Below, in pieces: positions 46,375 through 49,220 of a DNA stretch of 64,000 nucleotides. The notes below the pieces were generated by a model, which did not search any database, was not told the origin of the DNA, and saw nothing but the letters and a program-made list of their open reading frames with translations. Source of the stretch: an uncultured Candidatus Saccharibacteria bacterium (lineage in GTDB: Bacteria > Patescibacteriota > Minisyncoccia > Minisyncoccales > CAYZYK01); contig CAZDPT010000003.1 of the NCBI GenBank assembly GCA_964507665.1, forward strand, positions 3,210 through 67,209. Reading direction: 5' to 3'. The position numbers were made by a program, and so were the translations under genes. Numbering within the stretch: the stretch's first letter is position 1; every line of letters starts with the position of its first letter.

Positions 46375-48153
46375 TTATTTAAGAATAGCTTTTATTCTTC
46401 TTACTCCTGCTGAAGATGATTCTTCTTTTATGATCTCAAACTCTCCCAGCTTAGAGGTATTTTTTACATGAGGTCCTGCACAAACCTCTTCTGAAAAATC
46501 TCCAATAGAATAAACATTTACTTTATCAGGATAATCAGCTCCAGGAACAGTAAGAGCACCAGATTCTAAAGCTTGCTTTAAGGGTACCTCTCTTTTTCTA
46601 ACTTTCAAACTCCCTTCTATCTTCTGGTTCACCAAATCTTTAACTTTTTTAATTTCCTCATCAGTTAATTTTTGAGGATGTGAAAAATCAAATCTTAATC
46701 TTTCTGCATTAATATCAGAGCCTTTCTGTCTTACATGTTCCCCCAAAACTTCTCTCAGGCCTGCTTGTAAAAGATGGGTAGCGGTGTGAAGTTGAATTAC
46801 TTTCTTTTTCTCTTTTTCTGTTTTAGCTTGCTTTATTCCTACTCCCCCAAATTTTTTCTCAATTCCTGCTCGAGAAACTTGTTTGTGTTTCCGAAGAGCT
46901 TTTTTAAATCCTTTCTTATCAACCTTTTTGTTTTGTCTTTTAGCTAACTCTTCAATAAACTCTAATGGGACCCCATAAGTAGAATATAAATGGAAGGCCT
47001 TTTCCCCAGGCAGAATCTCATTAACATTTGAGATCTCTGAGGTAGTCTCTTTTATCCCTTGCTCCAAGGCCTGCTCAAATTTCTCTCTTTCTTTTTGAAC
47101 AACCGTTAAAATGTCAGTTTGTTTTGATTTAACTTTAGGATAAGAATCTTTGTAAATTTCAATTACTTTCTTTACCAAAGGAATTAAAAACCCCTCGGGC
47201 AATTCCAATAATTTACCAAACCTTATTGCTCTCCTTAAAACTCTTCTTAAGATATAACCTTCTTCAATGTTTGAAGGCAAAACATCATCTGAAATCAAAA
47301 AAACAGCACCTTTAACATGATCTGCAATAATTCTCTTTTTTTGGATATTTTCTCCCTCTGAAATTTCTATTTCTTTAATAATTGGTTGAAATAAATCGGT
47401 TCCAAATACTGAATCTTTTTCTTGGGAAACCATAGCTAATCTTTCCAAACCAGCCCCCGTATCTACTCCTTGCTGTTTCAGTTTTTCTAACTTACCATCC
47501 CCTCTTTTATTATATTGATTAAACACTAAATTCCAAAGTTCAATAAACCGACCACAATCACAATTGGGAATACATTTTTTACCTCTCTTACAGGGCATCT
47601 TAGTTAACTCATAATGAATCTCACAAGTGGGTCCACAGGGTCCTGTTTTTCCGGTAGGACCCCAAAAATTATCCTCCATTCCAAATTCTGAAATTCTCTC
47701 TTCGGGAAAACCTAAATTTTTAATAATCTCTTTTGATTCCAAATCTTTTGGAACCAGAGAAGGTTTTTTAACTCCTTTAAATATTGTAAACCACAATTTT
47801 TCTCTTTTAAAACCTATCTCTTCTGTTAAAAACTCAATTGCATATTCTATTGCCTCTTCCTTAAAATAATCACCAAAACTAAAATTTCCCAGCATCTCAA
47901 AAAAAGTAAGGTGAGTACTATCCCCTATCTCTTCAATGTCTGAAGTTCGGAAACATTTCTGTGAAGAAGCGACTCTATTACCATAGGGTGATTTTTTACC
48001 CAAAAAATAATCTTTGAATTGCTGCATTCCAGCGGTAGTCAACAAAACAGAAGCATCAGGGGGTAAAAGAGAACTTGAAGAGACTATAGTGTGTCCCTTT
48101 TTCTCAAAAAAATCTAAAAACTTTTGTCTTAATTCAAAACCAGTAAAACTCAT
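46375..48153 (-). CDS. alaS: alanyl-tRNA synthetase, short form ending after the editing domain (no C-Ala domain)
   Basis: N-terminus ELRQKFLDFFEKKGH, class II core, and editing-domain motifs HTATHLL and CAGPHV...GVRRIKA; 592 aa. Confidence 0.92.
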   Translation of the reverse strand: MSFTGFELRQKFLDFFEKKGHTIVSSSSLLPPDASVLLTTAGMQQFKDYFLGKKSPYGNRVASSQKCFRTSDIEEIGDSTHLTFFEMLGNFSFGDYFKEEAIEYAIEFLTEEIGFKREKLWFTIFKGVKKPSLVPKDLESKEIIKNLGFPEERISEFGMEDNFWGPTGKTGPCGPTCEIHYELTKMPCKRGKKCIPNCDCGRFIELWNLVFNQYNKRGDGKLEKLKQQGVDTGAGLERLAMVSQEKDSVFGTDLFQPIIKEIEISEGENIQKKRIIADHVKGAVFLISDDVLPSNIEEGYILRRVLRRAIRFGKLLELPEGFLIPLVKKVIEIYKDSYPKVKSKQTDILTVVQKEREKFEQALEQGIKETTSEISNVNEILPGEKAFHLYSTYGVPLEFIEELAKRQNKKVDKKGFKKALRKHKQVSRAGIEKKFGGVGIKQAKTEKEKKKVIQLHTATHLLQAGLREVLGEHVRQKGSDINAERLRFDFSHPQKLTDEEIKKVKDLVNQKIEGSLKVRKREVPLKQALESGALTVPGADYPDKVNVYSIGDFSEEVCAGPHVKNTSKLGEFEIIKEESSSAGVRRIKAILK

Positions 48154-48195
48154 ATGATTATTTTAACTTCTCTTCTTTATAAAATCAAATAAAAA

Positions 48196-48540
48196 TGAAA
48201 AGTCCCCACTTCGCGGAGCGGAGACTCGAGTCCTGCTCAGAGCAGGACAAAAAGAAGAACGAATGGACAGTGCGGTTTATCGCTGGCTCCACATGGTCGG
48301 GGTCAAATACCCCTGCTCAGCGATTAACCTTCGCCTATATCAGGTGGATTCCCTCCCCATCTACGGGCTTTCTTTTTACCCTCCGGGTTGGGCCTGATAC
48401 AGCGGCCCTCGTTTCTTTTATTTGTTGCGACCTATCCTCGTTTTTGAGAAACTCTTCTGGAACCCAATCCAGTAAGAAATTCCTCTCGCAAAGATAGGAC
48501 CGGCTCCTCGCCACTGTCCATTGGACTGATTACCTTTTCG
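48196..48540 (-). ncRNA. unclassified GC-rich structured RNA / alaS 5' leader element (strand assignment tentative)
   Basis: 176 G+C in 340 nt (48201-48540) versus 17/60 in the next 60 nt. Multiple nested helices include an 11-bp perfect long-range helix and a pseudoknot. A consensus promoter lies upstream on the minus strand. See findings. Confidence 0.6.
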
Positions 48541-48598
48541 CACCTAACTTACCTTTCTCTATTCTCTATTATCCTTCTCTTTTAAAGACAAACAATTT

Positions 48599-48608
48599 AA
48601 TGGACAGT
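48599..48608. repeat. 10-mer AATGGACAGT, second copy (first copy 48262-48271; exact reverse complement at 48513-48522)
   Basis: Exact matches read directly from the sequence. Confidence 0.9.
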
Positions 48609-48648
48609 AACAAGAATTTATTGTAAAGAACTATACTTTACACTTTCT

Positions 48649-48677
48649 ATTGTATCATATTATGTATTTCTTGTCAA
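48649..48677 (-). promoter_or_regulatory. consensus sigma70 promoter driving the structured RNA and alaS
   Basis: Minus strand: TTGACA (48677-48672), 17-nt spacer, TACAAT (48654-48649). Confidence 0.6.
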
Positions 48678-48704: not shown

Positions 48705-49220
48705 TTATGTAAATCTATCAGCTACCACCGAAGCAGCAAAAGCTTCGGGTTTAATTTTAGCTTCAAAACCGTTACTTTTAATCAATCCTACTACTTCTTT
48801 TATCATATCTCTCGTCTTCCCGTGTTTGCCAACATCAGCGTGAATGTGTTGAAATTGATAATCAAGGTTTAAAGTAGAATCTCTAATTTTCTTCTGAAGA
48901 GATTCCTTCAAAGACAAAGCTAACTCACAAGATAGTAACACTTCTTGTAAAACCCTCTGGTGAAAGTTAGAAAACTTCTTTTTTTGAGAAGGATATTTTA
49001 CTCTTTTAAGAAAAAACCTTCCTCCAGTTCCAACTCGTAAAACAACTACAGCCACAGGAAATGATACTTTATCTCCAGAACAAGAATCACACCCAACTAC
49101 AACATCATAAAATTTATTAGGTTTTTCTTTCATATAATTAAAAATTTCTCCAGTTACTTTACTGAATTTAAGATCTCCACGGGTAGGGTTATAAAAATGT
49201 CCGTCTTCAAACTTACTCAT
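48705..49220 (-). CDS. YkuK/DUF458-like protein (RNase H-like fold family)
   Basis: 171 aa. The pattern YDVVVGCDS...HADVGKHGKT...EAKIKPEAFAASVVADRFT matches my memory of B. subtilis YkuK-type proteins. Confidence 0.55.
   Translation of the reverse strand: MSKFEDGHFYNPTRGDLKFSKVTGEIFNYMKEKPNKFYDVVVGCDSCSGDKVSFPVAVVVLRVGTGGRFFLKRVKYPSQKKKFSNFHQRVLQEVLLSCELALSLKESLQKKIRDSTLNLDYQFQHIHADVGKHGKTRDMIKEVVGLIKSNGFEAKIKPEAFAASVVADRFT

Follow-up and report, generated by a model that had tools for sequence, protein, structure and literature searches.

Leader RNAs and competing helices

In three-segment attenuators and riboswitch platforms, of which the trp leader is an example, the middle segment pairs either with the segment that precedes it (1:2 pairing) or with the one that follows it (2:3 pairing). 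Leader pairings are also a feature of stable-RNA precursors, such as the rRNA processing stalks, which are cut by RNase III, and the 5′ leaders of tmRNA, RNase P RNA and 4.5S RNA. With respect to alaS, this gene is under the control of T-box leaders in Firmicutes, e.g., in Clostridium acetobutylicum (PMC4695836).

The RNA described here is encoded upstream of alaS in a stretch of 64,000 nucleotides (the window), which belongs to a 0.73-Mb Patescibacteria assembly that is 96.5% complete and has a GC content of ~33% (G000). Like the alaS T-box of Firmicutes (RF00230), it is a structured RNA of a few hundred nucleotides found upstream of alaS and on the same strand, with an intrinsic terminator and mutually exclusive helices. 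However, the window RNA presents no covariance match, T-box sequence, UGGN bulge or identified specifier loop, its competing helices leave the terminator out, the strong promoter of the RNA is distinct from that of alaS, and the RNA is absent from related genomes. As in trp-type attenuators, the middle segment can pair up- or downstream and the order of transcription favors the upstream partner, but the 2:3 helix closes a large domain instead of forming a terminator or an antiterminator, and neither a conserved leader peptide nor an aptamer match accompanies it. The likeness to stable-RNA precursors lies in a 5′ leader engaged in a long helix with the mature part, in a mature fold that is predicted to follow processing and in the presence of an RNase III gene in the genome; in contrast to such precursors, the partner of the window leader is the 5′ strand of the closing helix and not a 3′ trailer, and the RNA belongs to no known family.

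Organization of the transcription unit

The RNA unit of ~450 nt is located on the minus strand between a ykuK-like gene (DUF458, RNase H-like fold; 48705–49220), which is the usual direct upstream neighbor of alaS, and alaS itself (46375–48153), whose 592-aa product is devoid of the C-Ala domain. It comprises a promoter, a 120-nt AU/purine-rich leader, a 261-nt core, a hairpin and an intrinsic terminator, all of them read from the minus strand. The sigma-70 promoter (48649–48677), composed of TTGACA, a 17-nt spacer and TACAAT with a TG ahead, agrees with the consensus at 11 of 12 positions, and transcription would start near 48642. The transcript begins with a 6-bp hairpin in the MFE folds (48623–48641), and its 5′ sequence UAGUUCUU..AAUAA is common to another species of the same genus (G001). 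The leader then presents the strand UUCUUGUU + ACUGUCCAUU (48599–48616), in which a 10-mer occupies positions 48599–48608, followed by a purine-rich spacer (48523–48598) that constitutes the loop of the leader helix. Next comes the middle strand, AAUGGACAGU + GGCGAGGA (48505–48522), which is shared by two alternative helices, its partner being either the leader (18 bp) or the 3′ copy of the 10-mer (helix P1); it overlaps the motif GCGAGGNGCCRG (48500–48511), conserved in G001.

The structured core closed by P1 (48262–48522) has a GC content of 50–56%, against ~33% for the genome, and folds at −107 kcal/mol, with a z-score of −5.4 relative to shuffled sequence. It carries the conserved core motif GGARGGARYCCACC (48343–48356) and the 3′ junction motif GAUAAACCGC (48272–48281), both common to G001, and ends with the 3′ copy of the 10-mer, ACUGUCCAUU, which is the 3′ strand of P1 (48262–48271). 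Downstream of the core there are a conserved 8-bp hairpin, GUCCUGCU-CUG-AGCAGGAC (48230–48248), an intrinsic terminator with an 11-bp stem followed by a U-rich tract (48190–48227), and the promoter-like element of alaS, TTGATT-17-TAAAAT (48160–48188), which ends 6 nt ahead of the ATG at 48153. No conserved ORF was found in the RNA region, where tblastx revealed no coding conservation. An AUG inside the middle 10-mer (48521) opens a 29-aa ORF (30 codons with the stop; minus strand, 48432–48521). This ORF reaches as far as the first core hairpin and contains no codon for alanine, and in G001 AAAUGGAC is followed by a 15-codon ORF unrelated to that of the window.

Two mutually exclusive helices

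Both helices are built on the 10-mer AATGGACAGT, for which exact matches were found at 48262–48271 and 48599–48608 on the plus strand and at 48513–48522 on the minus strand, in agreement with a previous sequence-only reading that had listed two direct copies and one reverse complement. Considering that ~0.08 copies of this word are expected per window, that three copies occurred in none of 100 shuffles, and that the 734-kb genome holds no further copy, the word is specific to this locus. The same reading had correctly placed 76 nt between the leader and middle copies (48598–48523) and a tandem CTCTATT pair at 48557–48570, which corresponds to two AAUAGAG heptamers in the minus-strand RNA, whereas the interval between the middle and 3′ copies, given as 240 nt, measures 241 nt. 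The flanks of the two direct copies have no common similarity, since 271 of 1000 shuffles scored equally well. A second repeated word, CUGAGCAGG, is found in the core (48312–48320) and in the loop and 3′ arm of the conserved hairpin (48232–48240), and its core copy could compete over 7 bp for the 5′ arm of that hairpin; a 9-mer repeat in a stretch of 560 nt is close to what chance would give, and G001 does not keep its position.

Two further propositions of the sequence-only reading were sustained, one on the middle segment, which is able to pair with the copy on either side, and one on the long-range pairing, by which a strongly structured domain is closed. P1 is formed by 11 perfect base pairs (48512–48522 with 48262–48272), a bulged G and two more pairs, which amount to 13 bp, and it closes the core whose fold is described above; a pairing of the core ends is predicted for G001 as well. 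In the leader helix, the 10-mer is extended by eight pairs between UUCUUGUU and GGCGAGGA, four of them Watson–Crick and four G-U, giving 18 bp. However, the two helices are far from the equal strength that had been attributed to them, with duplex energies of −24.9 kcal/mol for the 18-bp leader helix versus −17.9 kcal/mol for the 13-bp P1. The whole transcript folds at −163.1 kcal/mol with the leader helix (MFE) versus −153.0 kcal/mol when P1 is forced, and in the full-transcript ensemble the probability of the leader helix is 0.98 against 3e-7 for P1, all of these values being thermodynamic predictions from a model that ignores proteins and folding kinetics. The leader helix is present in the MFE structure of every transcript prefix of at least 130 nt, and deletion of the leader raises the predicted probability of P1 to 0.4–0.76. 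While the leader helix is formed, the 3′ copy is mostly unpaired and its flank is paired with an A-rich linker (48405–48419).

The duplex between the leader and P1 was stronger than those obtained with 300 of 300 shuffled leaders. In addition, only 0.15% of all 8-mers in the genome are able to pair fully with GGCGAGGA (chance ~0.0015), and because an extension of eight pairs is so rare, the third copy is more than a duplicated word. Given that shuffled leaders were surpassed, that the extension is rare and that the flanks of the direct copies are unrelated, the leader helix, as predicted, looks selected rather than a duplication scar. This helix covers part of the conserved GCGAGG motif, and the sequestered motif, GCGAGGNGCC, is one of the three that are conserved in G001.

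Comparison with a second species and distribution

The alaS gene of G001 is 75% identical to that of G000. In G001, a TTGACA-17-TATAAT promoter is found in the same place after the ykuK-like gene and is followed by at least 455 nt of well-folded RNA (z −5.8) up to the contig end, while the contig holding alaS starts 304 nt upstream of this gene and includes a GC-rich core (z −4.2). The RNA region is GC-rich in both species despite their ~33% GC genomes. The two species have 88% identity over the last 94 nt, which encompass the hairpin, the terminator and the alaS promoter-like element, and two G-U pairs of the terminator are replaced by Watson–Crick pairs in G001. Within the core, only three motifs are common to both, GCGAGGNGCCRG, GGARGGARYCCACC and GRUAA(A)CCGC, and the remainder could not be aligned by BLAST or nhmmer, even though the RNase P RNAs of the two genomes are 70% identical; therefore, either the constraint on most of the core is weak or the core was rearranged. 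The ends of the G001 core are predicted to pair as GGGUAG/CUACCC, a closure like that of P1 with a different sequence. With two sequences compared, these data are suggestive of an RNA whose ends and junctions are constrained and whose interior varies, and the predicted pairings are likewise suggestive of a core closed by its ends in both species. No strong competitor for the G001 P1 was found in the 455 nt of the G001 leader, after which the contig ends in a repeat. The G001 core also carries a tandem duplication of the hairpin with the conserved GGAAGGAGCCCA motif (L123:106–129 and 140–163; copies of 24 nt, 79% identical and 34 nt apart), for which the window has a single copy.

Concerning the distribution of this RNA, BLAST searches in 40 relatives returned nothing above one chance-level match of 55 nt, and in nhmmer searches of ~190 alaS neighborhoods only the 3′ block of G001 was matched. 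A motif scan upstream of alaS gave matches only in G000 and G001, and the pattern formed by the core motif and the 3′ junction motif was restricted to these two among 401 genomes of the order. Within the genomes searched, the RNA is therefore carried by two species of one genus.

The repeat at the contig break

The last 53–58 nt of the upstream G001 contig, from TGTCCAGG onwards, match the ends of two G000 contigs with 100% identity. The copies start with TGTCCAGGTTCAGATACATATGATAC and are located at G000:C5:46447–46501, G000:C2:99204–99256 and L203:2488–2545 (the end of G001:C6). Three other genera have related copies of this repeat, placed between genes or at the ends of contigs, and its interior is absent from the bins. 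Such a stretch would represent the terminal part of a mobile or multicopy element that was shared recently or, alternatively, an upstream element that is conserved. Since the G001 contig is broken in this repeat, the leader and the core of G001 are found on separate contigs, and no contig bridging the gap was found in the bin. The occurrence of ACUGUCCA in the G001 leader was considered as a conserved leader copy and discarded as evidence, because it straddles the boundary of the repeat; this word is not enriched in G000 (9 copies versus 13.6 expected). As a separate observation on this assembly, the ends of contigs C3 (left), C10 (left), C12 (right) and C25 (left) of G000 consist of GAA/GAG-rich (or CTT/CTC-rich) low-complexity repeats, and the contig holding the window is among those ending in repeats of this type, which are the probable coding sequences of Glu/Lys-rich protein tails and the probable cause of the assembly breaks.

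Identity of the RNA

No Rfam family was matched, whether 3 kb were searched with a threshold of E ≤ 1 or the 551-nt region with one of E ≤ 10, and the pieces of the G001 RNA gave only chance-level matches. The T-box riboswitch (RF00230) was rejected by its covariance model at these same thresholds, and also because the UGGU bulge is absent from the transcript, while the three tRNA-Ala genes all have A73, and no specifier-loop architecture was identified. In addition, neither in the window nor in G001 does an antiterminator helix compete for the 5′ arm of the terminator, as a T-box or another attenuator would present. A leader-peptide attenuator was discarded in view of the 29-aa ORF without alanine, its unrelated G001 counterpart and the lack of coding conservation in tblastx. 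Protein-coding capacity more generally was rejected as well, considering that the sense 59-aa and antisense 100-aa ORFs have neither Pfam matches nor conservation.

Among known non-coding RNAs, RNase P RNA and tmRNA were both located elsewhere in the genome, and 6S RNA had no model match anywhere in it. A CsrB/RsmZ-type sponge was excluded by the GGA, AGGA and ANGGA counts, which equal those of dinucleotide shuffles in both species. The idea of a divergent SRP RNA (RF00169, RF01854) was dropped because the genome holds neither an Ffh M domain nor an SRP54-type GTPase (Ffh, FtsY), in addition to the absence of model matches in the genome. The SRP pathway as such was not found in G000, considering Ffh, FtsY, the Ffh M domain and SRP RNA; RF00169 was matched in none of 41 genomes of the order, and PF00448 gave only two weak P-loop-like matches in 31 genomes, with controls positive in 12–14 of 14 genomes.

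With regard to repetitive or mobile origins, TIGR-like and other tandem arrays were rejected, since only the heptamer pair and the 24-nt G001 duplication were found. The inverted 10-mers could recall a MITE or IS remnant, but such an origin is at odds with the lack of a flanking target-site duplication, with the presence of the RNA as a single copy and with the unrelated flanks of the direct copies. An origin of the leader as a duplicated alaS promoter region was not supported by a significant similarity, and no similarity to phage or plasmid records was found. As in stand-alone bacterial ncRNA genes, the unit has its own promoter and terminator, no conserved ORF, a fold beyond chance and the same place in a relative.

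Relationship with alaS

In the neighborhood of alaS, the gap that separates it from the ykuK-like gene is of at most 33 nt in 26 of 36 related loci, and the space upstream of alaS in relatives has a median of ~10 nt. Because these two genes are usually adjacent in relatives, the RNA block represents a lineage-specific insertion rather than an ancestral alaS leader. The direct ykuK-like–alaS arrangement (48705–49220 and 46375–48153 in the window; loci L015–L042 and L206–L233) looks like a conserved operon, and this proximity hints at a functional link between the ykuK-like protein and AlaRS or tRNA-Ala.

The promoter-like element of alaS is kept in G001, with a gap to the ATG of 6 nt in the window and 7 nt in G001. 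As this element ends 6 nt before the start codon, the sequence suggests that the alaS mRNA is leaderless, and alaS is most likely expressed separately, from the element abutting its start codon. The designation of the RNA as an alaS leader in the sequence-only reading is therefore doubtful, given that the RNA has its own promoter and terminator, that alaS has a conserved promoter-like element and that relatives have no leader. A second claim was that the fold, and perhaps alaS expression, is switchable. However, the hairpin and the terminator are formed in both conformations, with pair probabilities of 0.8 to 1.0, and neither the window nor G001 has an upstream partner of the terminator 5′ arm that outperformed shuffled sequence. 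Since the terminator forms either way and neither an antiterminator, a UGGU nor a conserved leader peptide was found, no expression platform through which the 10-mers could act on alaS was seen, and the coupling to alaS expression found no support. The logic of riboswitches and attenuators invoked for the competing helices found no counterpart either in any riboswitch or T-box model.

Alternative explanations

A riboswitch- or attenuator-like leader, in which a ligand, tRNA or protein selects the conformation and thereby sets alaS expression, is consequently regarded as very unlikely. It would account for the position of the RNA upstream of alaS on the same strand with a terminator at its end, for the three-segment 1:2/2:3 pairing logic and for the fact that the best-conserved part is the 94 nt with the hairpin, the terminator and the alaS 5′ region (88% identical), and T-box leaders do control alaS in Firmicutes (PMC4695836). 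These points are outweighed by the absence of Rfam riboswitch or T-box matches even at E 10, of a UGGU for the A73-CCA end of tRNA-Ala and of an antiterminator in either species, the terminator being present in both conformations. The helices are also ~7 kcal/mol apart and the whole folds ~10 kcal/mol, relatives are devoid of any leader, and the short ORF starting in the 10-mer lacks both Ala codons and conservation. The leader helix might instead be the final functional structure, P1 never forming in the cell, with the middle strand held by the leader and the 3′ copy ACUGUCCAUU and its U-rich flank either free or paired with the A-rich linker (48405–48419); a free copy could then be a single-stranded seed for a trans target or a protein site. 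The dominance of the leader helix in the ensemble and in every transcript prefix, together with a 3′ copy that is largely unpaired and a flank paired with the A-rich linker, agrees with such an arrangement. We nevertheless hold it to be unlikely, since P1 has a perfect 11-bp helix and two further pairs, the predicted pairing of the G001 core ends through another sequence argues that closure matters, the genome offers no other 10-mer copy as a target, and the alternative pairing between A-rich and U-rich segments is not conserved in G001.

An origin without regulatory meaning was also considered, in which the way the block arose or was rearranged, through an insertion, a partial duplication or a mobile-element scar, left behind both the third copy and the alternative pairing as an evolutionary by-product. 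The history of the locus is compatible with it, considering that the block was inserted into a conserved gene pair, that the RNA is confined to one genus and has a fast-evolving core, and that the G001 locus abuts a repeat 100% identical between species, which indicates a recent rearrangement there. Nevertheless, the flanks of the direct copies have no common similarity (271 of 1000 shuffles scored as well), no target-site duplication was seen, only one copy of the RNA exists, and ACTGTCCA occurs without enrichment in the genome. The eight pairs beyond the repeated word (chance ~0.0015) are also left unexplained by duplication, and both species have retained the promoter, the terminator, the GC-rich composition and the ability to fold, so that a by-product of this kind appears improbable.

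A proposed built-in lock in the leader

The explanation tentatively preferred here is that this is an independent, genus-restricted ncRNA in which the leader would keep the closing helix and the conserved junction motif under a built-in lock, opened when the leader is removed or unwound. Such a reading, which is possible and no more firmly held than that, starts from the observed anatomy and energetics of the unit, its restricted distribution and its insertion into a conserved gene pair. In the proposed mechanism, an RNA gene was inserted between the normally adjacent ykuK-like gene and alaS; its 261-nt core would be closed by P1, and the 18-bp leader helix would sequester both the 5′ strand of P1 and the conserved junction motif GGCGAGGA. 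Because the leader strand precedes the others in transcription and forms the helix that is stronger by ~7 kcal/mol, the core is predicted to be open in the primary transcript, which would be born in that state. P1 and the compact core would then form only once the leader is cleaved off or unwound, e.g., by 5′ processing. From this arrangement, we infer the use of the lock, its release and a role for the mature RNA. The RNase III encoded in the genome could be thought of as the releasing enzyme, but this route of release is not straightforward, since cleavage within the 18-bp helix would sever the 5′ strand of P1 as well.

A more specific and rather doubtful version of the lock reading would make it a large Patescibacteria-specific ncRNA produced as a self-inhibited precursor, in which the leader acts as an intramolecular antisense and activity is gated by processing and not by a ligand. 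In a weaker variant of this idea, the gate would respond to AlaRS or tRNA-Ala and feed back on alaS.

Biological meaning

The practical weight of these observations is limited, as no function has been assigned to the RNA and the two species known to carry it are uncultured. If the reading of an independent ncRNA with a locking leader is true, it would add one more unclassified structured RNA to the very small ncRNA set of ultra-small CPR bacteria, and would provide a clean natural case in which an RNA has its closing helix out-competed by its own leader. For the annotation of such genomes, the locus illustrates that a folded RNA found upstream of an aminoacyl-tRNA synthetase gene need not regulate that gene.
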